Shown one piece after another: positions 7,464 through 38,743 of a stretch of DNA of 48,401 bases (position 1 is its first letter; each line of letters starts with the position of its first letter). A program made the position numbers and the translations under genes. Location of the stretch: the NCBI GenBank assembly GCA_028284545.1, contig JANQRN010000104.1, positions 1 through 48,401 of the forward strand. Reading direction: 5' to 3'. The notes beneath the pieces were generated by a model. That model was not told the DNA's origin and searched no databases. It saw only the letters and a program-made list of their open reading frames with translations. The stretch is from Rhodothermales bacterium (GTDB lineage Bacteria > Bacteroidota > Rhodothermia > Rhodothermales > JABDKH01).

Positions 7464-10400
7464 CTACCAGCCCGGTACGAGCTGAAGGCCGAAGTGGGCC
7501 CCCTTGTCCGGTCGCTGGAACGGGTACGCGTAGAAGATCTCCATCACCATGTAGCCGAACAGGTTGAAGCGGCTTGAGGCGCCAACGCTTACCATCGGTG
7601 ACCGAGCGGTCGGCTCTCGCTTGAACTCGAGCACAGGGGCCTCGTCCTTGGTCCATGCAAGGCCCGCGTCCGCGAACAGCGACAGCTCCGTTGGGAGGTA
7701 CGGGAAGTTGATCAACCCGAGTTGCTCAGAGCCGAACAACGGAAACCGGATTTCAGCGCTGGCTAAAGCGATCCGCGTCCCAAACAGGTTGTTCAGCGAG
7801 CACGCGCCACTGTTCGGCAGTCGCAGCGTACACTCCGCGGGTTCCAATGAAGCGTAGCTGTAGCCGCGGATAAAGGACAGACTATTCCCATACCCCAGGT
7901 ACTCCTGCGTGAAGACTCCAGTATCGTCGCTGTTGTCTTCCTGGGCGAAGTAGTTGCCAACATGCAGGCCACGGATGGCGAACGTGAACGGCTTCGCGAA
8001 GTGGTACTTCCGATAGTCGCCAACTACGCGCAGGAACGACTCAGAGCCGATGAATGGTGAGACCTCGACGCGATACCGACCACCCTGGATCGGCGACGTA
8101 AACCCAAAGAACGAGTAGTCGCCGATGTAGGATAGCGATGAGTTCGCGAAGTAGATCGGGTCTGGAGCGGGTACCTGTTCAACATCACGGGTAAAGGTCA
8201 GGAAGTCCTGCGTGTACCGCTCGATTTCGTAGTCGAACCCATATCGCACAAATCCGCCCGACAACTCAAACCGTCGCGTCGTCGAAAGCGGATACGACGC
8301 AAGGCCGCTAAGCTGATCGATGAAGATGCGACGGCGGAATTGCTCGATCTGATACGAATTGCCGTCAGGCGACAACGAATAGCTCGAGGACAGGATCAAA
8401 TAGGGGATGTGCGCGATTTGGCCACCCCAGTTCAGTCGGTTCTTCTGATTCAGGTATGATACCTGGCCTCCAATGTCTTTGAACGTTCCGTTTGCCTGCG
8501 CCACCACCGTCAGATTATGGTTGCCAAGCATATCGGAGAAGAAGAGCCCGATTCCACCTGAGACGCCGGTGCCAAATGGCCCGCCGGCCGAGACACCAAC
8601 TGACGGCGGCGCAACGTAGTCGAGCTTCAACCGCGCACCATAGTCCTTGATGTCATAATCCTCAGGATCTGGCAACCCGGATAGCGGGTCGTCCAGGTAG
8701 CTCGCTACCAATCCGGCATTGCTAGCATACGCGGGCGGAAGGGCTCGCGCCGAGGCCGCAAACTCGCGATCCTGAACTTCGACGAGCGTACCGACGGTCT
8801 CTGATGCTTCGCGGGAGAAGATTGTGTACTTGTTGTTCGAGAAGACAGAGTACATCATACGTCCGCTCTGTCCGGCGACCGTCAGCGCAGGTGAGGTAGC
8901 CGTAATGCCACTGATGCCAGTCTGCACGTCGGTCACACGATAGACGAGATCCTCGTCGAGAGCGTATCGGTACACATCTTTGAATCCGTCCTGATCGGAA
9001 ACGAAGAAGACGGATTGTCCGTCAGGCGAGTACTGCGGGTTGATGTGCAACGCATCGTCGAACGGAACGATCGTATCGAGCTCTCCTGTCTCCACGTTGA
9101 TGAAGGACAGCCTGAGCTTGGCGTAGTCCAGTGTCTCGAAGTCCGTTCCGTACGGTCCTCGATCAGAAGCAAACGCGATCGTCTTGCTGTCGGGAGACCA
9201 CGAAGGATGGAGGTCGCCAAACTTGTCGTCGGTGAGCTGTTTTACATCGCCAGACTCCACGTCGAAGACGTAGATGTCGCTGATGCCGCCATCAATTCCG
9301 GAGAAGGCGATGCTCTTTCCGTCAGGCGACCAGGCCGGGTTGGACATCGCAGTGACACCCTCCACGGCAATGCGACGCTCGACGCGGCCCGAATTCCAAT
9401 CCAGGATCGCCAACTCGTTGTCTCCTTGGACAAAGGTGACAAACACAAACTGGCGACCATCCGGAGACCACGAACCTGCCGAACTGATAAACCGGATCGC
9501 ATCGAAGTGTGGATTTGATCGCGTGCCTTTCAGGCTCTTGACGACCTTCCCGGTCTCAGCATCGGCGATGAAGAGGTTGACCTGGAACAAGTTCTTCTCA
9601 GACAGGAATGCCACCCACTTGCCGTCGGGGCTTACCGACGGCGAGATGTTCATGCTTCCGGATGTCTCTTCCGAGACGAGCATGCGTCCGGCGGAGTCCG
9701 CTGGCGTACGACCTTCCGTTAGCGGCAGGTATGCTTCCTTCACCGACGAGATCCACTCCTGCGAGAGCGAGTCGGGCTTGATTCCGAGCGTGTAGACGAA
9801 GGCCGAATCCAACCCGACTCGGCCGCCGAGCTTGAAGATGTTGGCCACGGCAGCGTCGCCGTACTTGCCGCCGACGTACGCCATGTAGGCCTGCCCGTAT
9901 CGATACGGGAAGTACTTGTAGCCGTTGGACAGGTCGTCGATCGTCGGGAGATCGTCGCGAAGTGCCGCATCGCGAAGCCACATTGCGGTGTGCGCGTCGT
10001 TGCGACCAACGGAGAGATACTCGGCAGTGCCCTCGATGAGCCAGAGTGGGAGCAACTGGAAAGCAAACTGTACGGAGTCCTCCTTGGAGAGTCCGATGTC
10101 GTACTGGTACGAGTGTACGAGTTCATGACCCAGTACGTGGTCGGTCTCACTGTAGAGACCCGTGAGCGGCATGATGACGCGCTCCTTAAGTGACTCCGTT
10201 ACGCCACCGGTGCCTTGCCCCAGGCTACCGGATATGGCATTGGTCTGCTGGAAGTCTGCATCGTTCGCGTAAAGGATGATCGGCTTCCGCTTCCTAAACT
10301 CTCGGAGGTACGTCTGGGAGTGCCGTTCGTACCAGCGCTCGGCCATGCGCGCGGCGTCTTCTACAGCAACCTGCGCTTCACCATAGAAGTAGATTTCGAA

Positions 10401-22817: not shown

Positions 22818-23615
22818 TCAGTTGGCTGCTGCAAGCTCGCGCGTGCGCGCGGTATCGTGGGCGATGGCCTCGGTGAGGTATTCACGAAGGCGGTCGGGTG
22901 CGATGTCGACAATCATCTCACCGTTGAGCGCCACCGACACCTTTCCCGTCTCTTCGGAAACGACGACCACGAGCGCGTCTGTTGTCTCGGATAGGCCAAT
23001 TGCACTACGGTGGCGGAGGCCAAGGTGCGGACTGAGTTTCATGCTGGTCGACACCGGCAAGATACACCGCGCCGCGTCAATTCTGTTGTTCCGAACGATC
23101 ACCGCGCCGTCATGCAGCGGACTCTTTTCGTAGAAGATCGTTTCCAGCAATTCCGTAGTGAGCCTCGCCTCAATCGGCGATCCGGTTTCAACATAGCTTC
23201 TCAGGCCGGTGGTCCGCTCAATGGCAATCAGCGCGCCCGTTCGGGACTGTCGCATTGACGAAATCGCATTCATGACCTCGTCGACAAGGGGCTCGGCAGC
23301 CTTGGAGGTGAAGAAGCGCCGTATGAGGGGATTCTGACCGATAACGAGCAGCAGGCGTCGAATTTCCGGTTGGAATAGGATTATGACGGCGAGTACGAAG
23401 ACATCGCTGATGACCCGGAAAAGCGATCCCAGGAGCGTCATGTCGAGGATCGTGACGACAAACTGCAGACCGAGTAGAACGAAGATCCCGGCGAAGATCT
23501 GGATGGCGATCGTGCCGCGCATCAACTGGTACAGCTTGTACAGGATCAGCGCAAAGATTCCGATCTCAAAAAGATCGATCAGGCGTATCGGTATGACCCA
23601 GTTGAATAGCGTCAC
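22818..23615 (-). CDS. cdaA: Diadenylate cyclase CdaA (DacA), membrane-anchored
   Basis: Three N-terminal transmembrane helices are followed by a DAC domain carrying DGAVIV and GLRHRSAIGLSE(T)TDA motifs. The gene overlaps pcm and folP by 4 bp each. Confidence 0.85.
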   Translation of the reverse strand: MTLFNWVIPIRLIDLFEIGIFALILYKLYQLMRGTIAIQIFAGIFVLLGLQFVVTILDMTLLGSLFRVISDVFVLAVIILFQPEIRRLLLVIGQNPLIRRFFTSKAAEPLVDEVMNAISSMRQSRTGALIAIERTTGLRSYVETGSPIEARLTTELLETIFYEKSPLHDGAVIVRNNRIDAARCILPVSTSMKLSPHLGLRHRSAIGLSETTDALVVVVSEETGKVSVALNGEMIVDIAPDRLREYLTEAIAHDTARTRELAAAN

Positions 23616-26143: not shown

Positions 26144-26320
26144 ACACGAGTCAAGGGGAAAAACCGGGAACCTGCACCTCTGAGGCGGCGTGAACAGAGG
26201 CCGCGCGCGGGGCACCCCCGTCGGGATCGCGACGAGAATCTCGACAAACCTTAACGCCCCGCCTTCATAGAAAGCGATTCGCGTACGTACTACTAGCTAC
26301 AAACCTTCTTACGAATCGAC

Positions 26321-27160
26321 ATGTACGTCCCACGCCAGCAGCGAATGCTGGATCAGTATCTGCAAGAGATCGGCCAGATCCCGCTCCTTACTCCCGCAGA
26401 GGAAGTCGACCTTGCGCAGCGCATCAAGCAGAACGATATGGAGGCGCTGCACCGCCTGACCCGAGCGAACCTTCGCTTCGTCGTATCTGTAGCCAAGAAA
26501 TACCAGGGCCAGGGCCTGACTCTCGCTGACCTGATCAATGAGGGTAACTACGGCCTGATCAAAGCGGCCCAGCGTTTCGACGAAACGCGGGGTTTCAAAT
26601 TCATCTCCTACGCGGTGTGGTGGATTCGGCAGGCCATCCTTCAAGCGTTGGCCGAGCAGAGTCGCGTCGTGCGCCTGCCGCTGAACCGAATCGGCACCAT
26701 CTCGAAGATCCGAAAGACGAGTGCGAAACTCGCGCAGGTTCACGAGCGGCAGCCGAACATCGAAGAGCTCGCAAAAGAGCTTGAGGTTGACGTAGAGAAG
26801 GTTCGTGAGGCGCTTCAGCACACGGGTCGACATCTCTCCATGGATGCGCCGTTCAACGAGGACGACGACAACAGCCTCCTCGATGTGCTTCCAAATGATG
26901 AGGACCTGTCTCCCGACGACACGTTGATGGACGAGTCGCTCAAGATTGACATAGAGCGCGCCCTCAGCCTTTTGCATCCGCGCGAGGCAGAGATTACGCG
27001 ACTCTACTTTGGGATCGGTCGCGAGCACCCGCTGACGCTCGAAGAAATCGGGCAGCGGTTTGGGCTGACGCGAGAACGCGTGCGCCAGATAAAGGAAAAG
27101 GCGCTGCGGAAGTTGCGTCAGAAGCACCGACGGGAAGAGCTGCAGATGCACATAGGCTGA
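26321..27160 (+). CDS. rpoD: Primary RNA polymerase sigma factor of the short Bacteroidota-type SigA (sigma-70 family)
   Basis: Region 1.2 reads [19 protein letters not shown]. Region 2 reads [37 protein letters not shown]...[13 protein letters not shown]. Region 4 reads [29 protein letters not shown]. The 279-aa length is typical of the Bacteroidota/Rhodothermota SigA. Confidence 0.9.
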
Positions 27161-27186
27161 ATCCGCTTCTCGGCTATCAGTTTGGA

Positions 27187-27221
27187 AAGGGCGCCCTTGC
27201 AAGGGCGCCCTTTTGCTTTTT
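27187..27221 (+). terminator. Rho-independent terminator downstream of rpoD
   Basis: The 12-nt palindrome AAGGGCGCCCTT occurs twice (27187-27198 and 27201-27212). This allows a strong GC-rich hairpin, which is followed by TTTTGCTTTTT. Confidence 0.7.
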
Positions 27222-27319
27222 GTAGCCCTTGCCGCCTGCAACCTGCTTGGTGAAGTTCCTTAAACTAGGGGAACACTCCGGCACCGGAGAATCACCCAGG
27301 TCATAGCAGAGAGGTCGCC

Positions 27320-27940
27320 ATGGAACCCAACCTCGCAATTGGTCACGTGCTCAGTCGTGCGTGGGAAGCGTTCAAAACGAGGCCCGGCCTTATTCTCGCA
27401 GCCGCGCTCATCGCGGCAATCCTCGGTTCGCCGAGCGTCATCGTTGACGATGATTCAGGTCTGAGCTGGGCGGCCGAGTTGCTCCAGTTCTTCCTCGGGC
27501 CGCCGCTGGCAGCCGGCATGTGCATGCTGCTGCTGAATGTCGTGCGCGGAAATGAACCAGACATCGGCAACATCTTCGACGGGTTCAGACGCTACGGAAA
27601 ATCGATGGGCGTCTACTACATGTACGCCATCATCGTGGTCCTGGGCTTCGTCGCTCTCATCATCCCGGGGATCATTGCCCTTGTTGGCCTCCTCCCGGCC
27701 GTCTACATGGTGCTCGACAAGGACTACGACGCTGTTGATACGATCAAGAAGGCGTGGGAAATGACCAACGGTCACAAGGGAGATCTCTTCGTTCTTGGCA
27801 TCATCCTCGTGCTGATAACGCTCGCCGGCCTATTCGCCTTCATTATCGGAGTGTTCTTCACCTACACGTTTACGCTCGTGGCGCAGGCCGTGGTCTACGA
27901 TGAGTTGTTGAAGGCAGAAGAACCTGACGTATTCGTCTAG
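27320..27940 (+). CDS. Integral membrane protein of unknown function
   Basis: The 206-aa protein has four to five predicted transmembrane segments. Its organisation is loosely reminiscent of the DUF975 / GDPD-membrane-domain families. The assignment is by hydropathy only. Confidence 0.45.
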   Translation: MEPNLAIGHVLSRAWEAFKTRPGLILAAALIAAILGSPSVIVDDDSGLSWAAELLQFFLGPPLAAGMCMLLLNVVRGNEPDIGNIFDGFRRYGKSMGVYYMYAIIVVLGFVALIIPGIIALVGLLPAVYMVLDKDYDAVDTIKKAWEMTNGHKGDLFVLGIILVLITLAGLFAFIIGVFFTYTFTLVAQAVVYDELLKAEEPDVFV

Positions 27941-30900
27941 TAGACGATGTGACGTTGCTCAAGGGCGCGACGGACAGCAAAGAGTAGAAGTGGGTGGATC
28001 CGATAGCGCGTGTCTGTGTCAATTCGGGCGAACTCACTCTGGCGGACTTGGTCTGTTTCGTCGCGCACCGGTGCGATCATGCGTCGATTCAACAGCGCTT
28101 CGAGTAAGAGGACGTTCTCGTCAGCATTCAGTCTGGCTATCCGGGCATGCTCGTCTGCCGTGAGCGTCTTATGAAACAGGAAGTGCTCAAGCGAGAAAGC
28201 CCATGCCAGCGGTTGTCGCGAAATCGCGTCGAATGACAGTGGGTTGACGGGCGAGACGACAACGGTGCTCGATTCGTCCTCGAACTGGCAAGCACTGACC
28301 CAGTAGTACAGCGCCAGCATGATGTTCTGTCCACTAACTCTCGCCAGTCGCTCGAAGAACACGTCCTGATAGTGGGCCTGCTGCTCTTCTGCTGACCGGC
28401 GGCGGCGCACCCACTGGCGCATCGCGTCCGTTTGCGTTTGCGGCGGTAGGAACCGCAGCTGCATGCCACTACGCCGATGTCGCGCAAGTACTACCTGCTT
28501 CAGCGAGGCGCCCGAAAACCGCTTGAGCGAGCGGTGATTGAGAAAACCCGACGCCGTTCCAGAGACACTTGATTGGATATAGCGCCAGGTCAGGTCGTTG
28601 GTCGCGGCCACCCAGAACATGGCCGTGTCAGTTCGTGAGAAGAAGAGCAGGACGCGCTCTATGAGCGTCGTCCCTTCCGCACAGCGAATGACCAGGTGCT
28701 CCAGGTTGTCGATCAGACAAACGCGCCCCCTCAACTCGGGTGTTTCCACGATCGCTGACTCCAGCGCCGAGAGCGAGTCGTACTCGTCAACGCTCAGGTT
28801 CAGTGCGGCAGCCAGATGTCGAGCGAAGGCGGGCTCGGACTCCAGCCTTTCGTCGAGGTCCAGTTTGAAAAAATGCGATGGGCCAAGCTCAGGAAACGCC
28901 TCCTGCGCGGCGATCGTCAGGAAGCTGGTCCGGCCGCTGCCCTGTGGCGCTGATACGATGACAGCTCCAGCGCGACCGGTTGTGATCCAGTGACGGTACT
29001 GTGCCGACATCCAGTCCAAGTCGTCGCGCCGCCCTTCGTGCAACGTAGGCTCGGAGAGGGGTTCAAACGAGAACAGGTGTCGGTAGATAAGTGGGAGGCT
29101 CTTCCGCACCTGCGCAACGTCAGACAAGGCGTCTATCGCGGCGGTCAGATCCTGTTCGGTCCCGTGCGGACCGCCAACCGCCGATTGTCCCAGACGAACC
29201 AGCTTGCGTGCTTTGAGAAGAGTCCTTCTGCCGAAGTTCCGGAGTCGCGTCACACCTGACTGTACACTGGCAGCCACGGAGCGGCGGTAAGACTCAGCCT
29301 GGCGCTGAAGACCCGCGATTCGATCTTCCCACTGCTCCTGGCCATCGTCGTCGGTTCGCAATCGGCGAAGCACCGCGATCCACTGTGACTGAACCTCCTC
29401 GACTGTGGCCGAGGCGAACTGCCCCCAAGGCGGTCCGAGCGTACTTCGGATGTCGCTGAGCAACTCCACGGCTCGCGTCAGGCCGACGTCAGAGAGCTCT
29501 CTGGCGCGACTCGCGGCACGAACACTGTCTTCGACCCCGCCCGCGGCGGACGCGTCGTCTGCGCCCTCGCTCTCATCGCCGTCCCGGATCACGCCCACCT
29601 CGTTGACCGCGGCGTCCAGGTTGAACAACACGACGTTCTGAACCTCCTCTATCCGCGTCCACGAGGTGCGAAGCTGGGAGCGAAGCGGGGCCGCACCAGG
29701 CTCCAGTCGACGACCCAGCGGGCCAAGCGATCGTTTGACAACATCTCGAAAAGCAACGCTTTTCGTGCGCGCAAGAGGATCCACTGTGCTCGCAGTCGGG
29801 TCAGGGAGCGCATGGATCGTCAACGTTTCAGGAAGCGTATCGAGGCTGCGTAGGAACGCGGTCCAGATCCCGCTTCCAGGCTGGACAAGAGCCTCGTCTG
29901 CGGCCACAAGTCCGGGCATCTCTCGAAGCATCCGGGTGAAGTGGCGACCCGCTCGGAGCCGAGTCATTCGCAGGTCCCGGTAGAGCGTGTCAATGTCTCC
30001 GCCACCCTCGGCGGCCTCGCAAGCGTTGTTGGTCTCGGACGCAAAGCGTGCAAGTTCAGCTTCGATTTCGTCCGTAGTCGTCAGTATCGGGTCAACAGAC
30101 TTGCGCGCCACCGTGCCGAGTATGGACTCCTCGGTCTCCAGCAGTCGCCGACGCATTGCGAGCATCTGGTTGCCAAGCTCGAGGCGATCTGTGACCTGCG
30201 CGAACCACTTCTCCCACATCTCCCGAGTTCGACGTGCTCGGTCAGCGGGCGCATAACCCTCGACGCTGCTTCCGGATTTTCCTCTAATGCGTCCTCCTCG
30301 GGACTGCGCATCAGCCAGGTCGGTGCGTAGCCTACGATCGGCAAGCTCCACGAGAGATGCTTCCACCTCAGGGATCGAAATGTCGGCGGCTGTCAGCTGA
30401 TCGAGCGAGGCGTGCAACTTTTCCGCGGTGTCTCGAGCTCCGGCAATGGCCTTTTCGGCCGACGTCTGTTCACCGTCGTCCTCGGGCGAATCGGGGTCGC
30501 CATCATCGTTCGCGCGTGCCAAGTTTCTTACTTCGGTGTAGTCGCGCACCGCCACGGTGTCGATCCCTCGTTCAGCTACGAGCATGGACCGGACCCAGCT
30601 GCTGATCGATCTTTCGATTTCGACACCGACTTGCGCGTAGTGCGACTGAAGCGACTCGTAGACCGGCGTGTACAGGAGCGGTAGTCGGGCACCGATGTGG
30701 TATCCGATCAGACTTCGTAAGGGGATGCCCCCGACTTTTTCGTTGGTTTCGTCTTGTCCGCGCAGTCGGGTGAAGAGGCTGCGCGCCCAACCCCCGAAAC
30801 CGCCACGCTTATTGCCCGGATAAGAGTCAGGATTGTCGGGCAACGGAATCCACTCCGGCAGTGCTTCCTGGATCAGAACTCCGTCTTGCAGAAACCGGGC

Positions 30901-31236
30901 GTGCGCCTCTCCGAGCAACGACGGCGGCGGTTGCTGACGGAAGTGCTCCAGCAGTGGTTTTAACACGTTGTCGTGGACAGCGCGGCGGTAATCGACGATC
31001 GCTTGCCAAACAGACTCCTCGTCCGCTTCGGCGGCCCGTAAGTCCGAGAGGGCGCTGACGTGTGCACCGGTTGCCTCTTCCAGCAGGTTGTGTAGCGGAG
31101 TCTGAACGTCGTCATTGATCGACTCCTTCCATTCGGCAACAGCGGCATCCAGTAGATCGCTCGCCTGCTTCAGGTACCTGTCGAGATCTGAAGGCGCTGG
31201 AGCCGTCTCTGAAAGAGTGGCTGACGGCTCATTCAT
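27937..31236 (-). CDS. Large (1099-aa) acidic coiled-coil protein with a C-terminal P-loop NTPase-like domain that bears a deviant Walker A
   Basis: The first roughly 700 aa are alpha-helical and acidic with no obvious catalytic motif. The C-terminal region carries a Walker A-like AVIVSAPQGSGRTSF in which Arg sits at the canonical Lys position. A Walker B-like hhhhD motif (RVCLIDNLEHLV) follows. There is no transmembrane segment. The start codon overlaps the stop of the upstream MscS-family gene by 8 nt (ATGAATGA). Confidence 0.6.
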   Translation of the reverse strand: MNEPSATLSETAPAPSDLDRYLKQASDLLDAAVAEWKESINDDVQTPLHNLLEEATGAHVSALSDLRAAEADEESVWQAIVDYRRAVHDNVLKPLLEHFRQQPPPSLLGEAHARFLQDGVLIQEALPEWIPLPDNPDSYPGNKRGGFGGWARSLFTRLRGQDETNEKVGGIPLRSLIGYHIGARLPLLYTPVYESLQSHYAQVGVEIERSISSWVRSMLVAERGIDTVAVRDYTEVRNLARANDDGDPDSPEDDGEQTSAEKAIAGARDTAEKLHASLDQLTAADISIPEVEASLVELADRRLRTDLADAQSRGGRIRGKSGSSVEGYAPADRARRTREMWEKWFAQVTDRLELGNQMLAMRRRLLETEESILGTVARKSVDPILTTTDEIEAELARFASETNNACEAAEGGGDIDTLYRDLRMTRLRAGRHFTRMLREMPGLVAADEALVQPGSGIWTAFLRSLDTLPETLTIHALPDPTASTVDPLARTKSVAFRDVVKRSLGPLGRRLEPGAAPLRSQLRTSWTRIEEVQNVVLFNLDAAVNEVGVIRDGDESEGADDASAAGGVEDSVRAASRARELSDVGLTRAVELLSDIRSTLGPPWGQFASATVEEVQSQWIAVLRRLRTDDDGQEQWEDRIAGLQRQAESYRRSVAASVQSGVTRLRNFGRRTLLKARKLVRLGQSAVGGPHGTEQDLTAAIDALSDVAQVRKSLPLIYRHLFSFEPLSEPTLHEGRRDDLDWMSAQYRHWITTGRAGAVIVSAPQGSGRTSFLTIAAQEAFPELGPSHFFKLDLDERLESEPAFARHLAAALNLSVDEYDSLSALESAIVETPELRGRVCLIDNLEHLVIRCAEGTTLIERVLLFFSRTDTAMFWVAATNDLTWRYIQSSVSGTASGFLNHRSLKRFSGASLKQVVLARHRRSGMQLRFLPPQTQTDAMRQWVRRRRSAEEQQAHYQDVFFERLARVSGQNIMLALYYWVSACQFEDESSTVVVSPVNPLSFDAISRQPLAWAFSLEHFLFHKTLTADEHARIARLNADENVLLLEALLNRRMIAPVRDETDQVRQSEFARIDTDTRYRIHPLLLFAVRRALEQRHIVY

Positions 31237-32332
31237 CGTCAGTCACCGATATGTTGCCATGGCGGGGTGGGGGATCCCGCTTCTCAAGCATCCCTTCGCG
31301 CAGGTATTCGCTCTTCGCACGCTCGGTGATGTCACTTGAGAAGACCTGCTCATAGCGAGTGTCCAGAACGTATGCCTTCACGATGATCTTCGTAAGGAAT
31401 CCGTAGTCGTAGTGGTCCTCCACAAGGACAACGATGGGCTTCTTCAGGTACACGTACTTCGATGTGGCCGCCGCGTCGTAGGCAATGCGTTTGGCCCGCT
31501 CGACGTCTATCGATCCCGGCAAGAAAATCTCCGTCACGACCTGGCAATCCAGGGCACCCGCGTTTGCATTTGCGACCTGCCCGTTGACCACTTGTGTGTT
31601 TGGAACGGAGACAAGGTTGTCGTCTGGTGTCACGATTCGCGTTGACCGCAAACCGATGGACACAACCTCGCCGTACGTGCCCTCGATGCGCACCTTGTCG
31701 CCCACCTGAAACGGTTGGTCCAGTATTATCATTATGCCGCCGAACACGTTCTTGAGGGCATCCTGCGCCGCAAATCCTACGGCCACGCCGATTGCTCCGC
31801 CAGCAACGATCAGCGATTCCTCGTCAAAGAGAAAGACAAACCGGAAGATGTAGTAGGTGGCGATGCTCCAGACGATTATCCGCACTATGGGGATCGCCTT
31901 CATGTACCCCATTCTGCGGGTCGCGCTGCGCTCAGCTCTAATCGCGAGAATCCAGACCGAGAACCTGATCGCGTAGTACGCGATTAGCAGAATCACAAGC
32001 GAGCGCAACAACTTCCATCCGAGGTCCGCGAAGAACTCCTCAAATCCTCCGCGTCGGCCGGTGTCGCGACGCAGCTCGGTGATCCTGGCCGACAGAGTGT
32101 CCAGATGCGTGACGATCGCGTCGAGTTCTGCACGAGCAATGCTGTCGGCCCGTGCTTGCTCGGCCTCTGCTAGTTCGGCCTCTAACGTGCCAGACTCAAT
32201 CCTAGCCTTTTCAGCGTCCGAACTCGTTCGGTCCAGCCACCCGCACCCAGAGGAGGAGGCGGTGACTAGAAGCAGGGCTACGACCAGGAGGTGCCGCCTG
32301 CGCCAATTTGGGCCGTTGCGAAAGAAATCCAA
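31229..32332 (-). CDS. MscS-family mechanosensitive channel with an N-terminal lipoprotein-type signal and a periplasmic coiled-coil
   Basis: A lipobox-like LVTASSSGC lies near the N-terminus, followed by a coiled-coil of about 60 aa (TLEAELAEAEQARAD...). Transmembrane helices follow, then a conserved MscS beta-domain (ILDQPFQVGDKVRIEGTYGEVVSIGLRSTRIVTPDDNLVSVPN). The gene is translationally coupled to the 1099-aa gene downstream. Confidence 0.8.
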   Translation of the reverse strand: MDFFRNGPNWRRRHLLVVALLLVTASSSGCGWLDRTSSDAEKARIESGTLEAELAEAEQARADSIARAELDAIVTHLDTLSARITELRRDTGRRGGFEEFFADLGWKLLRSLVILLIAYYAIRFSVWILAIRAERSATRRMGYMKAIPIVRIIVWSIATYYIFRFVFLFDEESLIVAGGAIGVAVGFAAQDALKNVFGGIMIILDQPFQVGDKVRIEGTYGEVVSIGLRSTRIVTPDDNLVSVPNTQVVNGQVANANAGALDCQVVTEIFLPGSIDVERAKRIAYDAAATSKYVYLKKPIVVLVEDHYDYGFLTKIIVKAYVLDTRYEQVFSSDITERAKSEYLREGMLEKRDPPPRHGNISVTDDE

Positions 32333-32434: not shown

Positions 32435-33370
32435 ATGGCACAAGACGCCATTACAAGCGTCCCGCAGGACGCTGCCGTAGACAGCCTGGCCGCAACAACT
32501 CCGGCGGGCGACGCGCCCTTTTCGACGTTCTCCGACATATTCTCGCTCGCTTTTGCCAGCTCTCTCGGGGTTGTCCTCTTGCGCATATTGTTTATCGTAC
32601 TCGGGGCTTTCCTGGTCGGCAAGCTAATCGACCGTGTTCTCAGACGCTGGGTCCGGCGATATGATGATGTGCCGGCGCTTGATCCGCGTCGACAAAGGGC
32701 GCTCACTCTCGCGAATCTCCTCGGCTCAACATCGCGCTACGTGATCTGGCCGCTGGCCGTCATCATGATTCTGAGCGAGATGCGCATCGACGTAGCCGCG
32801 CTCATCGCGACGGCTGGGATTGCGGGTCTTGCGGTGGGCTTTGGTGCGCAGACGCTTGTCAAGGACGTGATATCCGGAGTGTTTCTGCTGTTCGATAACA
32901 CCATCGCCATCGGCGACCGCGTTCGTATCGGGACGGATTACGGGACGGTTGAACACATTGGCGTGCGCCTCATCAAGGTTCGCAAGTTCGACGGCGAGCT
33001 CATGATGGTGCCGGCAGGTGAGCTTCGCGTGTTCGGCAACACGAGTATCGACTTCTCGCGCGCGATCGTCGAAATCGGCGTAGCATACAAGGAGGACATC
33101 GCCCAGGTCTCCGAAATCTTGGAGCAGGTGGCCAGGGGTTGGATGGCCGACAATGCCGACGTCCTGAAAGAGGAGGACCCCAACGTGCTAGCCATCATGG
33201 GGTTTGCTGACTCTGCGATTCTCGCAAGGGTCGCCGTGACAGTTGTGCCGGGCGAGCAGTTTCGTGCGGAGCGGGAAATGCGCGTCGCACTCAAGAAGGC
33301 CTTCGATGATGCCGGAATCGAAATACCGTTTCCGCAGCGCACGGTTCACGTAACCAACGTGGCCGATTGA
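32435..33370 (+). CDS. MscS-family small-conductance mechanosensitive channel
   Basis: The protein has transmembrane helices and the MscS signature (FDNTIAIGDRVRIGTDYGTVEHIGVRLIKVRKFDGELMMVPAGEL). It is divergently transcribed from the other MscS gene. Confidence 0.8.
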   Translation: MAQDAITSVPQDAAVDSLAATTPAGDAPFSTFSDIFSLAFASSLGVVLLRILFIVLGAFLVGKLIDRVLRRWVRRYDDVPALDPRRQRALTLANLLGSTSRYVIWPLAVIMILSEMRIDVAALIATAGIAGLAVGFGAQTLVKDVISGVFLLFDNTIAIGDRVRIGTDYGTVEHIGVRLIKVRKFDGELMMVPAGELRVFGNTSIDFSRAIVEIGVAYKEDIAQVSEILEQVARGWMADNADVLKEEDPNVLAIMGFADSAILARVAVTVVPGEQFRAEREMRVALKKAFDDAGIEIPFPQRTVHVTNVAD

Positions 33371-33371
33371 G

Positions 33372-36341
33372 CTAGAACGGCACGGTCGCGCGGATCCGAT
33401 AGTACAGTTCGTGCTTGTCGGTGCCGACGTCACCTGCACGCTGCGCCAGGCCGGCGGCATGCATAATTGTGATGTAGTCCCGGATCGAGACCGCGTTCTT
33501 CAATTCAACGCCGACACCCAGCCTTCGATCTCCATTGCGTAGAGCGTGCTCCGGGTAGACCAGCGCACCGTCCGCAAAGACGGAGACCGAAGTCGCGCCA
33601 AAGGAAACCAGACCCAGCAGCTGTGTGCGCAGGGAACGCGCAACGGGGACGCGGTACTCGATACTTGAAAACCAGACGCTCTTGCCCACAACGACTTCTC
33701 GATATCCACGCACTCGCTCGACATCCGAGAACGAGATCTCCAGGATATCAGGTGCGAGAAGCTGAAACTCGTCGTAGCGAGACAACCCGATGAAGTTCTG
33801 CGCAAGCGTCTCGCCGCGCTGGTATTGGACGCGTCCGTATGCGAAGAGTCGAGAGTTCCCGATGGCAGGCATGATTCCGTACGCAGCGGCGCCAAGACGC
33901 ACAAAGCCCGTCCGGCCACTGAAGGAGCGAAGTCCGGCCATCGCACGCAAACGAAGCCCCACGCCGTCGAGCGGGTGGACAACGTTGTGTCGGTAGGGTC
34001 GTTGTCGCGTGACGCGAAACGATAGTCGGGCGTCAGCCTGGTGGCCCGCCTCGGGTTGCGGAAGCCGTCCGTCAGAGAAGATGTCTTCGTTCAGCGGCTC
34101 GACATCCACGTATCTGGTCCGCAAGCTAATCGAGCTGCGCACGTACGGCGCGCTCGTCAGGGTGAGCGGCCATCGCGTCGTCAGTGACACCTTTGTCGCG
34201 CGCTCGCGCAGCAACTCATTGCCGTACGGGCGAACGATGTCCGGTAGATACTGGACAACGGTTTGAATCAGCGGGGCATACTGGTTGTTGATATATGCGA
34301 CCTGGACGCTGGACTTCCGCAGTGGGTCTGTAGCGGATACGGCCAGCACGACGCCGAGGCTGTGTTTTCCGAGAGGTTCTGTCCACGCGGTTATTCCGGT
34401 GAGTCCGTAGTTGTCGGTTGACGTGTAGTACGGAACCGCTATCGAGAAAACGTGGGTCAGGTTCGACAGCGCGTTGTAGCGAGTCCTCTTCGTTACGACT
34501 TCCGGTCGTACGGCTACGCGTGACGGGACTACTGCCGGCGGACGATGGCGGGCCCAGTCTCCAAATCCCGGCGGCAGGTCTGGTTCAGGTTCAGGTACGA
34601 TGCGTGCGCCGGGTATCATATACAATTGGTCTCGCACCTTCGAGTACGCGATACGCACAGCAAGCGAGCCGGCCGGTGTCCAGTCAAACGCATCGGCGCC
34701 TGTTGCAAGGGCGGTTACGCGCCTGGTCGCGGTGTCGGTGCCGGGTTCCAGCGCAAAGACGTTCGGCACACCGTCGCGCAATGAGGTGAACGCAAGTTCT
34801 TCACCCGAGGGTGACCACAAAGGCCTGCGGTCGTCATGCTGACCATCCGTAACGGATTTGACCTCGCCCGTCGAGACGTTGGCCGTTTCGATCACGCGCC
34901 GTCCTTCAGCATCAAACCTGCCGTATGCAATGATGTCGCGACTTGGGTGCCAGTCTATCCGACCAATCTGCGAGTCTCCTTTGAAGTCCGTGAGACGAGC
35001 TTCCTGGCCCGAGTTCAGGTCGAGCACGTAGAGGTTTCCGGTGCCGCGATACGATCCCACGAACGCCAGTCGCTTTGCGTCTGGTGAGAAACTGGGGAAG
35101 GCGGCTCGCCGCGAATGCGTAAGTCGCGTGCGACGGCCGGAGGTCAGGTCCACAAGGAACAGGTCGTTCAGCAAGGAGCCATTTTCGCCACGAACCTGGC
35201 GTGTGTAGGCGACCTTGCTGCCGTCGGGAGCGACGGATATCTGGTCCTTCACCGCTCCGTCGACAACGACACGCCAATCTTTGGAACGCCCGCTTCGCAC
35301 GAGCAGCTGCGTCAACGGGCGGTCCAGTGATCGCAGCGAGACAACCGCCTGGGTAGCGCCGTTCGTGGATGCGCCGAAGTCGCGGATATACTGCCCGGGG
35401 ATCGCCGCTGGCTTCACGCCGAGCGAGTCGGCGTTTTCCATCTGGCCGGCGAGCGTGTTGTACTGCACGTTGATGTGCCGACGCCATTTGTCGTAGAAGT
35501 CGCGATACGATTCGCCTGTTACGCTCCTGAAGGCGTAGCCAAAATCATGAATGCGCACGCCTGGGAAGACACGGCGACGGTGAGACAGCAAACGCGCAAG
35601 CGTTGAATCGCCGTACTGGGTAGCGAAGTAGCGTACCTGCGCGTTACCCACCGAATACAATAGACGTCCGTTCCAGACCGATCGGCCGTCGTTGTAGGAC
35701 AGTCGATCGTCCAGGACGGCTGTCCGCAGCCAGCGTTCTCCGCGATATGCGTCCCACTTCTCGGTCTGGTACTGCGCCAGACCTTCGGTCCAGAATCTTG
35801 GTAGTGCCAGTCCGAGATCAAAGGGGCGGAATCGCGAGCGCACTGCCCGATAGTGGAAGATGTGCGCGAGCTCATGTGAGACCACCTTCCGGATCCACTT
35901 GTCCGGTCCCGTCCAGACTTCGGCGGCGTCGTTGAGGTGGACCCAGATGTTTGTGTGGCCGGTGCCAACGGGCACGGCAAACCCGTTTACGATCTCGTCT
36001 TCGTCAGAGAGATAGATTCGAATCTTCTTGTCGAATGAGACGCCGAGATTTGACGAGAGCGCGGCGTATGTCTCCTCTGCAACCGCGGCGGCCTCGACCT
36101 CAACACCAGCGATGCGGTTCGGGTACACGATGACGAAGTGTTCGGTCTCCGCCTGTCGCCAGTTGATTTCCGGGTGATTTCGGCCATTCATCGACAGGTA
36201 TCCCTGCGCCACCGCTGTCATCGGGGCGAAAACGCCCAGGCAGAGCGCGAGGACGGAAATGCCGGCCGCTATTGACCTGCAGGTGTGCAAAAAGGAAGTC
36301 GGGATGGTGATTCGGGCCAGAAGAGTGCGAGCAGCAAACAC
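33372..36341 (-). CDS. Large secreted protein (paralog 2) with a Peptidase_MA_2-like domain, a PD40 beta-propeller and a C-terminal beta-barrel
   Basis: The signal peptide reads ...ISVLALCLGVFAPMTAVAQG. The HExxH motif is HELAHIFHY, with a downstream TEGLAQY. PD40 repeats are present (APDGSKVAY, FSPDAKRLAF, WSPSGEELAF). The C-terminus is beta-strand-rich and ends in an aromatic residue (...RATVPF). Conserved blocks match the 7464..10544 gene (TEHF.I.Y, HEL.H, WL....L.DD). Confidence 0.7.
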   Translation of the reverse strand: MFAARTLLARITIPTSFLHTCRSIAAGISVLALCLGVFAPMTAVAQGYLSMNGRNHPEINWRQAETEHFVIVYPNRIAGVEVEAAAVAEETYAALSSNLGVSFDKKIRIYLSDEDEIVNGFAVPVGTGHTNIWVHLNDAAEVWTGPDKWIRKVVSHELAHIFHYRAVRSRFRPFDLGLALPRFWTEGLAQYQTEKWDAYRGERWLRTAVLDDRLSYNDGRSVWNGRLLYSVGNAQVRYFATQYGDSTLARLLSHRRRVFPGVRIHDFGYAFRSVTGESYRDFYDKWRRHINVQYNTLAGQMENADSLGVKPAAIPGQYIRDFGASTNGATQAVVSLRSLDRPLTQLLVRSGRSKDWRVVVDGAVKDQISVAPDGSKVAYTRQVRGENGSLLNDLFLVDLTSGRRTRLTHSRRAAFPSFSPDAKRLAFVGSYRGTGNLYVLDLNSGQEARLTDFKGDSQIGRIDWHPSRDIIAYGRFDAEGRRVIETANVSTGEVKSVTDGQHDDRRPLWSPSGEELAFTSLRDGVPNVFALEPGTDTATRRVTALATGADAFDWTPAGSLAVRIAYSKVRDQLYMIPGARIVPEPEPDLPPGFGDWARHRPPAVVPSRVAVRPEVVTKRTRYNALSNLTHVFSIAVPYYTSTDNYGLTGITAWTEPLGKHSLGVVLAVSATDPLRKSSVQVAYINNQYAPLIQTVVQYLPDIVRPYGNELLRERATKVSLTTRWPLTLTSAPYVRSSISLRTRYVDVEPLNEDIFSDGRLPQPEAGHQADARLSFRVTRQRPYRHNVVHPLDGVGLRLRAMAGLRSFSGRTGFVRLGAAAYGIMPAIGNSRLFAYGRVQYQRGETLAQNFIGLSRYDEFQLLAPDILEISFSDVERVRGYREVVVGKSVWFSSIEYRVPVARSLRTQLLGLVSFGATSVSVFADGALVYPEHALRNGDRRLGVGVELKNAVSIRDYITIMHAAGLAQRAGDVGTDKHELYYRIRATVPF

Positions 36342-36359: not shown

Positions 36360-38558
36360 TCAGGAGCCGAAACGCGATCGCAGATCGGTTGGGGTAGCTG
36401 AGGCCGTGCCGGTGGCGTCGACTACAACTAGCTGATCGCGGAAGAGAAACGCAACTTCATTGCCCAGCTTCAGGAACGCCCGTGCGTCAGGATACATCTG
36501 GAAAAACGCGAAGTAGGCCTGGGACCCAAATTTCAGGTTCCACTCCGGCGCGTTTTCGGTGTTCGACTGCGTCAACCAGTTACCCGAGCCCGTTTGCACA
36601 AGGTTCTGCCCGAGGATGTTGATCAGGGGCGTCTCGTCGTCCTGTCGGATTACGCGCGCTTGCTTCAGGTCCCAGATGGCCTTGCTCATCTCGACAGCGT
36701 CTTTGCCCGAGGACTCCGACATCGCCTCTGGGGCGAATCGCTCACTCCGGCGCACAACGGCTCCGACCGGCGTCAGCGCGTCCAGTTCGCGGACCGCCGC
36801 AAAGCGTGCCTCATCCTCGGTTACGAGATAGGACGTGTATGGTGTGACAATGCCGAACTCCTTGGCCAGCGCGACTATCTCGTCGATCAGCGCCTCATTC
36901 TCTCCCTCGAGGCGAATGGATTCCAGCAGCACGCCGATTCGTCGCGTAGCCCAGACGCGCGCGACAAAGGCGTCGTCACGCATCACATCCGGCAAATCCA
37001 GCGAAACCTGTTGCGTGGTCTCCACGCCGTTGAGAGTTCCTTTGACCGTGATCACGGTCTTGCCCGCCCGGGCGTATCGGCCAGTAAGCGTTAGCGCATC
37101 TCCGAGGAACAGATCTGATGGTCTTCTGGGTGCAAGCTCAGAGAGTCGGACTCCGGTAGATGCAATGGTGATGTCCGTCATGACCGGATACCGCACCCTG
37201 TCGTAGAAGCTGGATACGCGTTCTTCGATATTCTCGTCGGGCCCGATATACTCGGCGAACGCACGCGAGTCCGTTGCAAGTCCGTCCAGCAGATCTGTGT
37301 TCACGTCGTAGCCTACGCCGAAGGCGAAGATGCGGGAATCGGTTGTGTTGTTGGCGCGGGCGTTCTGCAAAATCTCTTTTGGCATCACGACACCCGTTGA
37401 CGGGAGGCCGTCTGTGAGGAAGACAATTGTGCCGGGGCGCTCGTCGTCGAGCATGGCAAGTGCTTTGGCAAGCGCCTCGTTGATGTTGGTCCCACCCCGA
37501 GCCTCAAGTTGATCAACGAAGAAATGGGCGTCGTCGACTTCAGCCGTGCTGACGAGTTCGTCGGTAAACGCATTAGCGTCTGAGCTGAACGCCACCAGGC
37601 CAAACCTGTCGTCTTCTCCAAGACGGTCCAGTGCGTAGGAAACTGCCTCTCGTGCCTGAGCGATCTTCTCGCCAGCCATGCTTCCCGACGTATCCAGGAC
37701 GAACACGATGTCTCGTGGTGCCACCCGACGCGAGTCACGTACGACGGGCGGGTCGAGCATAAGCATGAAGTACCCCGACCTTCGTTTGTAGGGCCGGTGG
37801 GTAAGCAAGGTCGCGGCCAGGTGGTCACGACTCAGCGAGTAATAAAGGACGAAGCTCCTGGCGCGTTCATCAAGTTTGCCACCGGCCTCGACGAGTGTCG
37901 AGGCACCTGATCGCTTGACCGTGAGCTTGTTGGTGGGCGAATAGAGATTGCGGACGTCGGCGTCCGACGTAATCTCGACCGTCACCCGCGGCGCCGCACC
38001 AAGCGTCTGACCGTCCCGATGCGGACCGGCGTGACCGGCAGACAGGGCGCCGGTGAGCGGATGGACGAACCGGACGGTTTCTGCGGTGCGATCAAGGACG
38101 AGATCGTAGGTCAGGGTGATCTCTCGCGAAGCGCCCGGGTCGATGGGAAAGACCCGTGCCCGAAAAAGATTTCCGTCAGCCCACTCCAGCAGCGCTGGGT
38201 CAAGCACATTGCGTACGATTTCCTCGTAGGTGCGTCGCGCCTCTTTCGCGGGCAGCAGTTCGCCACCGACCACTTCGCCGTCAATCTTCAAGGTGAAGGC
38301 TGAAACGGCCGCACCGGCGGGCAGCGGAAAGAGAAAAGTGCCCTCGAGTCTCAGGCGCGATGGATTCCGGATTGCTGCGCTCACGGTGACGGTCGCAACC
38401 TGATGGTTGATCAGCGCAGAGACCTGGTGGTTTTCGAGCTGGAGTTCATTCGGTCGCGCGCTGCGGTCCAGAATCCATCCTTGCGCGAGCGCCGAAGACC
38501 CCGACGCGGTCGCGCCAGCAACCACGATTGCGAGCAATAAGAGCGGTTTGGTCCACAT
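36360..38558 (-). CDS. Secreted VIT-domain and von Willebrand factor type A (vWA) domain protein
   Basis: The signal peptide is MWTKPLLLLAIVVAGATASG; the start was refined from 38729 to the ATG at 38558. An N-terminal VIT-like region is present. The vWA MIDAS motif is VFVLDTSGSMAGEKI. The gene ends 18 bp upstream of the peptidase/PD40 paralog on the same strand. Confidence 0.75.
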   Translation of the reverse strand: MWTKPLLLLAIVVAGATASGSSALAQGWILDRSARPNELQLENHQVSALINHQVATVTVSAAIRNPSRLRLEGTFLFPLPAGAAVSAFTLKIDGEVVGGELLPAKEARRTYEEIVRNVLDPALLEWADGNLFRARVFPIDPGASREITLTYDLVLDRTAETVRFVHPLTGALSAGHAGPHRDGQTLGAAPRVTVEITSDADVRNLYSPTNKLTVKRSGASTLVEAGGKLDERARSFVLYYSLSRDHLAATLLTHRPYKRRSGYFMLMLDPPVVRDSRRVAPRDIVFVLDTSGSMAGEKIAQAREAVSYALDRLGEDDRFGLVAFSSDANAFTDELVSTAEVDDAHFFVDQLEARGGTNINEALAKALAMLDDERPGTIVFLTDGLPSTGVVMPKEILQNARANNTTDSRIFAFGVGYDVNTDLLDGLATDSRAFAEYIGPDENIEERVSSFYDRVRYPVMTDITIASTGVRLSELAPRRPSDLFLGDALTLTGRYARAGKTVITVKGTLNGVETTQQVSLDLPDVMRDDAFVARVWATRRIGVLLESIRLEGENEALIDEIVALAKEFGIVTPYTSYLVTEDEARFAAVRELDALTPVGAVVRRSERFAPEAMSESSGKDAVEMSKAIWDLKQARVIRQDDETPLINILGQNLVQTGSGNWLTQSNTENAPEWNLKFGSQAYFAFFQMYPDARAFLKLGNEVAFLFRDQLVVVDATGTASATPTDLRSRFGS

Positions 38559-38743
38559 GAGGTAGAAACGGCCCCTTGACGTTGAATATTGCCCCCGAGG
38601 TGCTGCGGATAGACACGTAAAGGGGTCCTGGAAACGTTTGGTCAGCCTATGACACATAGCTGTCACCCTCTTGGTGTACCCTTTTAGCGGGTCTTCCGTA
38701 GAAAGAGTGAAGGCCGACGTGCAGCGCAACCTAGAGGTCGGAA

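Follow-up and report, generated by a model that had tools for sequence, protein, structure and literature searches.

Does a bacterial mechanosensitive channel of the MscS family ever come with a dedicated protein partner? MscS channels are the textbook case of gating by membrane tension alone, without accessory proteins, and the question is raised here by a pair of genes in a contig of a Rhodothermales bacterium (GenBank assembly GCA_028284545.1, contig JANQRN010000104.1, positions 1 to 48,401). The window, as we call this whole stretch of 48,401 nucleotides (nt), contains on its minus strand two open reading frames (ORFs), at 31229..32332 (367 amino acids, aa; TTG start) and at 27937..31236 (1,099 aa). 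Judged by its ORF, its Pfam matches and its alignment to chains in the PDB, the first is the gene of a partner-type MscS-family channel. The second encodes a large protein, proposed here as the cytoplasmic partner, in which 19-residue windows reveal no hydrophobic segment of transmembrane (TM) level. A preliminary description of the locus had joined the two genes in one functional module. The pair is in fact conserved and co-inherited, it is widespread across several phyla, and it seems to be undescribed. Coordinates of features within the two genes refer to the minus strand throughout.

Conservation of the gene pair

The immediate question is whether the two genes keep company elsewhere. For 43 loci, including that of the window, the six-frame ORFs are searched with both window proteins and compared all against all with BLAST; eight loci end before the relevant flank and are not assessable, which leaves 35. 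At 34 of these 35 the direct neighbour of the large gene, in the same orientation, is an MscS gene belonging to one and the same subfamily. The paired loci belong to Rhodothermales, Bacteroidota, unassigned metagenome contigs and Novosphingobium (Alphaproteobacteria). Within the window's clade (25-45% identity) the channel gene precedes the partner gene, and within a more distant clade (14-18% identity) the order is reversed, partner before channel. No further neighbour is conserved across the loci in the all-against-all comparison. Adjacency to the MscS gene had been set beforehand as the test on which the proposed functional link would stand or fall; it is kept across phyla despite the inverted gene order, which supports the link. 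We take the two genes to be very probably a functional unit.

The junction between the two genes, GACGATGAATGAG, places the TGA of the channel gene and the ATG of the large gene inside a common 8 nt, ATGAATGA (31229..31236), the same stop/start overlap that the preliminary description had reported. Relatives show similar junctions: a 4-nt ATGA overlap occurs at eight loci (L008-L012, L014, L024, L040), a 1-nt overlap at L019, and across the loci the typical junction is an ATGA overlap or else leaves a few bases between the genes. Such overlaps suggest that translation of the channel gene and that of the partner gene are coupled.

Parts of the two proteins also occur in a single chain. The protein P0173 (1,641 aa, from an 18-kb contig of JGI sample 3300048101) is a fusion of partner and channel parts of the Rosetta-stone type. 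It has about ten TM segments, of KefB type according to its JGI name, together with the helical region (E 8.5e-16) and the lid/winged-helix region (E 3e-11) of the partner family, from which the P-loop has been lost, and it ends in an MscS-like TM helix and an MscS beta domain. The pair is present in a cultured organism as well. On pLA3 of Novosphingobium pentaromativorans US6-1 (L039, 3610..7862), an "AAA family ATPase" with canonical Walker A and Walker B motifs (WP_007014233.1, 1,110 aa) is followed after 2 nt by the partner-type MscS WP_039857743.1. WP_007014233.1 matches the partner family over its C-terminal ~310 aa only; its N-terminal part differs.

The channel

What kind of channel is it that travels with the large gene? 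It is a member of the MscS family (PF00924 / PF21088), with the beta domain and the TM2/TM3 pore helices above the curated cutoffs (Pfam MS_channel_2nd, 72.2 bits against a cutoff of 20.2, 3.7e-20; MS_channel_1st, 26.9 bits against 23.1, 4.7e-6). The Pfam model of the C-terminal domain, MS_channel_3rd, is not detected. Residues 107-341 align to residues 25-253 of the solved MscS 7dlu (E 8e-16), 37 PDB sequences match in all, and the similarity to solved MscS structures extends through the cytoplasmic alpha-beta domain. The MscS core (residues 101-350, 31283..32032) accordingly comprises three TM helices, the beta domain and the alpha-beta cytoplasmic domain, as read from the hydrophobicity, Pfam and PDB comparisons, and the three hydrophobic segments occupy the positions expected for MscS. 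The channel domain named in the preliminary description is thus confirmed by the Pfam scores and the alignment to solved chains.

Ahead of this core, the protein begins with LDFFRNGPNWRRRHLLVVALLLVTASSSGC, a signal peptide that ends in a lipobox-like SSGC (Cys30; 32243..32332). At the level of sequence, this N-terminus fits the pattern of bacterial lipoproteins (...RRRHLLVVALLLVTASSSGC): an n-region that is basic, then a hydrophobic core, then the Cys of a lipobox. The Cys is kept in six orthologues of the near clade, whose corresponding residues are LAAC, LAAC, LSAC, WVGC, CGAC and GPAC, so the lipobox signal proposed earlier appears to be genuine. Every partner channel examined has a signal peptide, of the lipobox type in the near clade and of the signal peptidase I (SPase-I) type elsewhere. 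Between the signal peptide and TM1 lies an acidic periplasmic segment (residues 31-100, 32033..32242, pI 4.7) that is probably helical, and the orthologous channels contain segments related to "DSLRxEVxxL" in this region.

The partner channels are related to one another in a telling order. The window channel matches a Bacteroidota partner channel with E 2e-62 and 36% identity and the Novosphingobium partner channel with E 9e-54, whereas its match to a canonical MscS encoded ~100 bp away in the window has only E 2e-15. Because the partner channels are far closer to each other across phyla than the window channel is to its paralogue in the same genome, they form a subfamily of their own. The canonical gene (32435..33370, plus strand, 311 aa) is divergent from the operon and has the Pfam models MS_channel_1st, 2nd and 3rd all above cutoff; it is a distant paralogue of the partner-type channel and part of the context, not a member of the pair.

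The large protein and its family

Sequence libraries have little to say about the large protein. Its sole match is to Pfam AAA_22, with 19 bits and below the cutoff of 27, and searches of NCBIfam, PADLOC and PDB sequences return no match, so it lies outside any characterised family, as had been supposed. One word-indexed homologue search retrieves only the protein itself and one relative of 997 aa, and another such search gives 4 proteins. The family is revealed by an exhaustive profile search with a hidden Markov model (HMM) through 1.84 billion representative proteins, which yields 2,551 clusters at 50% identity with E<1e-3, 1,820 with E<1e-10 and 915 with E<1e-30. Among the best 150 family representatives, lengths outside 980-1,180 aa are rare. 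When nine representatives are scanned against Pfam and NCBIfam, weak matches to AAA_22, AAA_16, NACHT or BrxC_BrxD appear in the C-terminal third; AAA_22 reaches ~29 bits in some of them, at most ~2 bits above its cutoff, the other models remain below theirs, and no family model spans the protein. Family members that have a name at all are called "hypothetical protein" or "ATP-binding protein". Among the named sources are metagenome-assembled genomes (MAGs) of Rhodothermales and Bacteroidota, Rhodothermaceae bacterium RA and a Deltaproteobacteria MAG, and WP_155174992.1 of Fulvivirga kasyanovii is a member too.

To what fold does such a protein belong? The AlphaFold2 model, built from a 72-sequence alignment, has a mean predicted local distance difference test (pLDDT) score of 88.2 and a predicted TM-score (pTM) of 0.79, and it divides the chain in two. 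The N-terminal domain (residues 1-713, 29098..31236) is modelled as all-alpha. From residue 15 to residue 713 it consists almost entirely of long helices of up to 80 residues (e.g., residues 330-410, 567-628 and 633-686), broken by a pair of disordered acidic loops and a pair of very small beta hairpins. The preliminary description of these ~700 aa as helical and highly acidic holds in its first half, according to the model; the acidity is moderate, with a pI of 5.0 and a net charge of -27 over residues 1-700 that comes mostly from the two loops. It had also found no recognisable domain here, and this agrees with Foldseek, which, given only the N-terminal model (pLDDT 78), finds no PDB match better than E 0.16 and hence no relative among solved structures. 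Matches of this domain to toxins of the ClyA/Hbl/Smh type, to the ZorA tail and to dynamin-like proteins were set aside as weak, generic similarity of long helices. The same applies to a MakA match in one relative, and the small beta hairpins are not hydrophobic.

Residues 737-1099 are modelled as an alpha/beta P-loop domain, a helical lid and a winged helix. With the full model, the top Foldseek match in the PDB is Cdc6/ORC (E 5e-6), from which we take the C-terminal module to be an ORC/Cdc6-like AAA+ module with a winged helix: an AAA+ alpha/beta base at residues 737-905 (28522..29028), and the AAA+ lid, with the invariant R919 and H920..S923-G924 motif, together with the C-terminal winged helix at residues 906-1099 (27940..28521). 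At the level of the predicted fold, base, lid and winged helix can be superimposed on Orc1/Cdc6. The nucleoside triphosphatase (NTPase)-like core noted previously is therefore present, although it is not a generic P-loop domain. The winged-helix region (residues 1001-1099) has 14 D+E and 14 K+R and is not visibly basic.

The most conserved motif of the family, LPLIYRHLFSFEPL, sits at residues 714-727 (29056..29097), just where the helical domain joins the AAA+ module. The 72-sequence alignment shows no variation at P715, Y718 and L721 of this motif, and these residues are kept in 149-150 of 150 sequences in the larger one. A different element is found far upstream, at residues ~126-178 (30703..30861), where most family members have a strongly basic amphipathic insert with a net charge of +5 to +9, e.g., ARRRLRRLSNGARRLVRR. 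The version in the window protein is shortened and weakly basic (GGFGGWARSLFTRLRG). This insert could serve to bind lipid or the channel.

The ATPase site across the family

We now ask whether the AAA+ module is likely to be an active enzyme, using an alignment of the 150 best family representatives for the residue counts. The window protein does carry, as first reported, an Arg in its Walker A motif next to an hhhhD Walker B. Its Walker A reads APQGSGRTS (residues 763-771, 28924..28950), with Arg769 where Lys is expected, and the stretch GSGRT departs from the canonical GxxxxGK[ST]. Its Walker B strand reads RVCLID-NLE (residues 838-846, 28699..28725), in which Asp843 is followed by Asn in the place of the catalytic Glu, so that LIDN stands where the canonical pattern is hhhhDE. 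In the family, the Walker A Lys column is occupied by R in 61 sequences, K in 25, A in 19, L in 10, T in 8, I in 8, V in 6, H in 5 and other residues in 8. Within the window's near clade it is R in 23 of 25, so the Arg is a clade trait inside a large family, not a one-off. No basic residue is found at either P-loop position in 25 of the 150 (~17%). The catalytic-Glu column is N in 81 and D in 28, and the acidic column of Walker B is E in 90 and D in 59 (149 of 150). Other parts of the module are invariant or nearly so, namely G766, G768 and T770, the G735-R736 motif, W750, W875 and W979, R919-H920, S923-G924 and the LPxVYxxLF motif.

Two relatives suggest where the deviant site came from. The orthologue in a second, syntenic genome (L038) keeps the Lys in its P-loop (GDPGSGKT), and the distant Novosphingobium relative has a canonical GERGLGKSS together with hhhhDD; because of these two, the ancestor of the family was probably an active ATPase. 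The simplest reading of the alignment is that the catalytic residues became dispensable while the pocket and the fold stayed under selection. Decayed catalysis with a kept pocket would fit a ligand-binding switch or a scaffold rather than a motor. The earlier idea of a switch or pseudo-enzyme is strengthened by this family-wide loss of both the Walker A Lys and the catalytic Glu.

Genomic context

Do the surrounding genes point to a function? The order in the window is PCMT, CdaA, DHPS, GH3, sigma-70, DUF975, partner, MscS, second MscS, PD40/Tricorn-like and VIT-vWA. The arrangement around the L038 pair is syntenic with this, including the series CdaA-DHPS-GH3-sigma70-partner-MscS, which indicates that the locus has been inherited vertically among core genes. 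At L037 the neighbours are two more MscS genes and a Kef-like gene of the Na_H_Exchanger+TrkA_N type, and at L041 they are three more MscS-like genes, an OprB porin and an Ion_trans channel. PADLOC-DB v2 contains no family that matches the channel or the large protein at E<=1, and tblastn with the window's large protein finds no match in 50,697 phage records and none in plasmids. The plasmid matches that do exist are all to large non-mobilisable replicons. Read in this way, the context favours a role in ion or osmotic homeostasis over one in defence.

Several individual neighbours deserve a word. The gene at 22818..23615 (minus strand), three to four genes from the pair, encodes a CdaA-type diadenylate cyclase, the synthase of cyclic di-AMP (c-di-AMP). 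C-di-AMP is a regulator of K+ and osmolyte homeostasis. We have set this link aside; the gene is three to four genes distant and occurs there in only two syntenic genomes, and the proximity may be a matter of synteny only. The DUF975 membrane-protein gene (27320..27940, plus strand) is convergent with the large gene, with 4 nt (27937..27940) common to their 3' ends; the syntenic L038 lacks it, and it is probably an insertion unrelated to the pair. An ORF of 310 aa at 26309..27241 (minus strand), antisense to the sigma-70 gene (26321..27160, plus strand), is almost certainly a shadow ORF of GC-rich sequence, and antisense ORFs of this sort recur throughout the related loci. On the far side of the second MscS gene, and on the minus strand, 33372..36341 encodes an envelope-type PD40/DPPIV_N protein of 989 aa, which has a Tricorn/PD40-type counterpart in L038, and 36360..38729 an envelope-type protein of 789 aa with VIT and von Willebrand A domains.

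Comparison with known systems

How far do described systems account for the pair? The window channel shares three features with E. coli MscS, YnaI, MscK and MscM, namely the pore-lining TM3, the beta domain and the cytoplasmic alpha-beta domain; with MscK and MscM it also shares the signal peptide and the extra periplasmic segment. It is unlike the known members in belonging to a distinct subfamily that travels with the gene of a large cytoplasmic partner. Similar in concept are the bCNG channels, ligand-gated MscS relatives with a small fused domain that binds cyclic nucleotide monophosphates. The analogy lies in the combination of an MscS pore with a cytoplasmic nucleotide-binding module; the bCNG sensor, however, is small and fused, and its counterpart here is a separate protein of ~1,100 aa with an AAA+-type pocket. 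Full-text literature searches found no description of a pair of MscS and such a large protein. The preliminary description knew of no MscS partner protein of this kind, and a September 2026 review likewise describes the known MscS-like channels as needing no accessory proteins and lists none (PMC13591265).

On the side of the partner, archaeal Orc1/Cdc6, eukaryotic ORC1-5 and Cdc6 are only 11-15% identical to the AAA+ module and winged helix of the window protein. The latter differs from them in that it has neither the Walker A Lys nor the catalytic Glu, its winged helix is not basic and a helical domain of 710 aa precedes the module, and nothing ties it to replication. Sir3, a non-catalytic paralogue of ORC1, is among the Foldseek matches and offers an analogy for a decayed ORC-type module. 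STAND/Avs/NLR-like sensors come to mind through the AAA_16, NACHT and NB-ARC matches in relatives, all of them below the curated cutoffs. In contrast to such sensors the large protein would, according to the model, end directly after the winged helix, so that their C-terminal repeats are absent; the P-loop Lys is not conserved in its family, PADLOC gives no match and the surroundings are not those of a defence island. From BREX BrxC/PglY and transposon TnsC it differs in domain order, the AAA+ module being C-terminal in the large protein. Pfam and PADLOC give no BrxC_BrxD match in the window protein, and no BREX or transposition genes are nearby, the neighbours being DUF975, sigma-70, the MscS gene and the PD40 protein. 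That the large protein is not a known STAND or BREX-type ATPase, a point on which its novelty had been made to depend, agrees with these sub-threshold STAND matches and with the lack of any BREX match.

A model for the pair and its alternatives

Combining the information above, we propose that the conserved module consists of a specialised MscS channel and a cytoplasmic partner of ~1,100 aa, that coupled translation would supply the two proteins in matched amounts, and that they would form one complex in which the partner docks on the cytoplasmic cage of the channel. The decayed AAA+ module would then serve as a switch or scaffold that binds a nucleotide or another ligand, not as a motor, and the partner would tune the opening of the channel or of its cytoplasmic portals in ion and osmotic homeostasis. 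The physical complex, the docking site, the ligand and the physiological role are parts of the proposal that we infer. Taken as a whole, the explanation of a coupled pair with a cage-docked partner and a non-hydrolysing AAA+-like switch that tunes the channel stands, in our judgement, evenly poised between right and wrong. AAA+ modules and MscS both form rings, and a ring-on-ring arrangement is attractive, as pure speculation. A bolder reading, which we consider possible but on the unlikely side, is a new kind of regulated MscS complex, in which a dedicated pseudo-AAA+ oligomer would sit under the heptameric cage, possibly as a matching ring, with its long helical arms towards the membrane, and the complex would gate the pore or the portals upon a nucleotide or another cytosolic cue. 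The fenestrations in the cage of MscM open and close during gating (PMC13591265), and this movement makes them a plausible point at which a partner could regulate the channel.

A number of points weigh against this proposal. The link to osmotic or ion homeostasis is guilt by association, taken from four loci and the fusion protein, and that fusion, P0173, is a single metagenomic gene call in which a frameshift or an assembly artefact is possible. Nucleotide binding by an Arg-type P-loop is our supposition, and the ~17% of sampled members that have no basic P-loop residue argue for a purely structural role at least there. L007, the sole exception among the assessable loci, has only a 77-aa C-terminal remnant of the channel (7717..7950), next to an intact partner gene of 1,121 aa and with an OmpA-like gene upstream; the channel may have been lost recently, or the remnant may stem from faulty assembly, and the partner may thus persist alone, at least transiently. 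The Novosphingobium pair is carried by a 757-kb megaplasmid. Finally, an architecture resembling ORC/Cdc6 and STAND proteins is also typical of immune sensors.

The last two points lead to the possibility of abortive infection or defence, already raised in the preliminary description, in which the STAND/ORC-like protein would sense a phage cue and open, or act through, the MscS-type pore and so depolarise or kill the cell. The succession of nucleotide-binding domain, lid and winged helix, the weak Pfam AAA_16, NACHT, NB-ARC and BrxC_BrxD matches in relatives and the megaplasmid of Novosphingobium would suit it, and many abortive-infection (Abi) systems have a similar make-up, two genes with a membrane protein among their products. 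It is disfavoured, however, by the lack of a match for either protein in PADLOC and of any in the 50,697 phage records, by the synteny with core genes in the second genome and by neighbours that are channels and transporters and not defence genes; the one Anti-Pycsar-like gene of the beta-lactamase fold, at L042, is no more than a weak match. The large protein also has no C-terminal sensor repeats, and a loss of the Walker A Lys across a family, as seen here, is not usual among STAND immune sensors. We consider this role improbable, and among the alternatives it is the least supported by context. The same low probability attaches to a signal that flows in the reverse direction, where the channel or its lipid-anchored periplasmic N-terminus would sense the state of the envelope or the membrane tension and the partner would relay it through its helical domain or winged helix. 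The conserved signal peptide and periplasmic segment of the channel would then find a use, as would the C-terminal winged helix and the conserved basic amphipathic insert of most partners. Yet the winged helix (residues 1001-1099) is not basic and does not suggest DNA binding, no conserved third gene offers itself as a target, and the channel core looks intact and pore-forming.

The partner might instead be a scaffold or localisation factor, a lattice or tether of long helices that positions or clusters the channel, with a dead AAA+ module that only oligomerises. Some ~710 residues of very long helices, the basic amphipathic segment that most relatives have (net +5 to +9) and the share of members (~17%) with no basic P-loop residue speak for such a role; but G766, G768, T770, the acidic residue of Walker B, R736, R919 and H920 are conserved far beyond the needs of pure oligomerisation, and the window protein itself has the amphipathic insert in shortened form only. 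We rate this a shade lower than the two preceding possibilities. That the genes are chance neighbours, or share no more than their transcription, is scarcely credible: L007, which lost most of its channel gene, could be cited in its favour, whereas the pairing at 34 of 35 assessable loci across phyla in spite of inverted order, and the existence of a fusion protein, effectively refute it.

Implications

The pair puts in question the idea that MscS works without a partner. If the proposed complex forms, bacteria would also build MscS channels that are regulated by a partner, and should the bolder reading of a pseudo-AAA+ oligomer beneath the channel cage prove true, an MscS subfamily would be partner-dependent and not purely "force-from-lipid". 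Formation of the complex would likewise assign a role to a large family that is now named only "hypothetical" or "ATP-binding protein", and it would show that nature has turned an ORC/Cdc6-type AAA+ module into a non-catalytic switch. The cultured carriers, Novosphingobium pentaromativorans US6-1 and Fulvivirga kasyanovii, make the pair directly testable.

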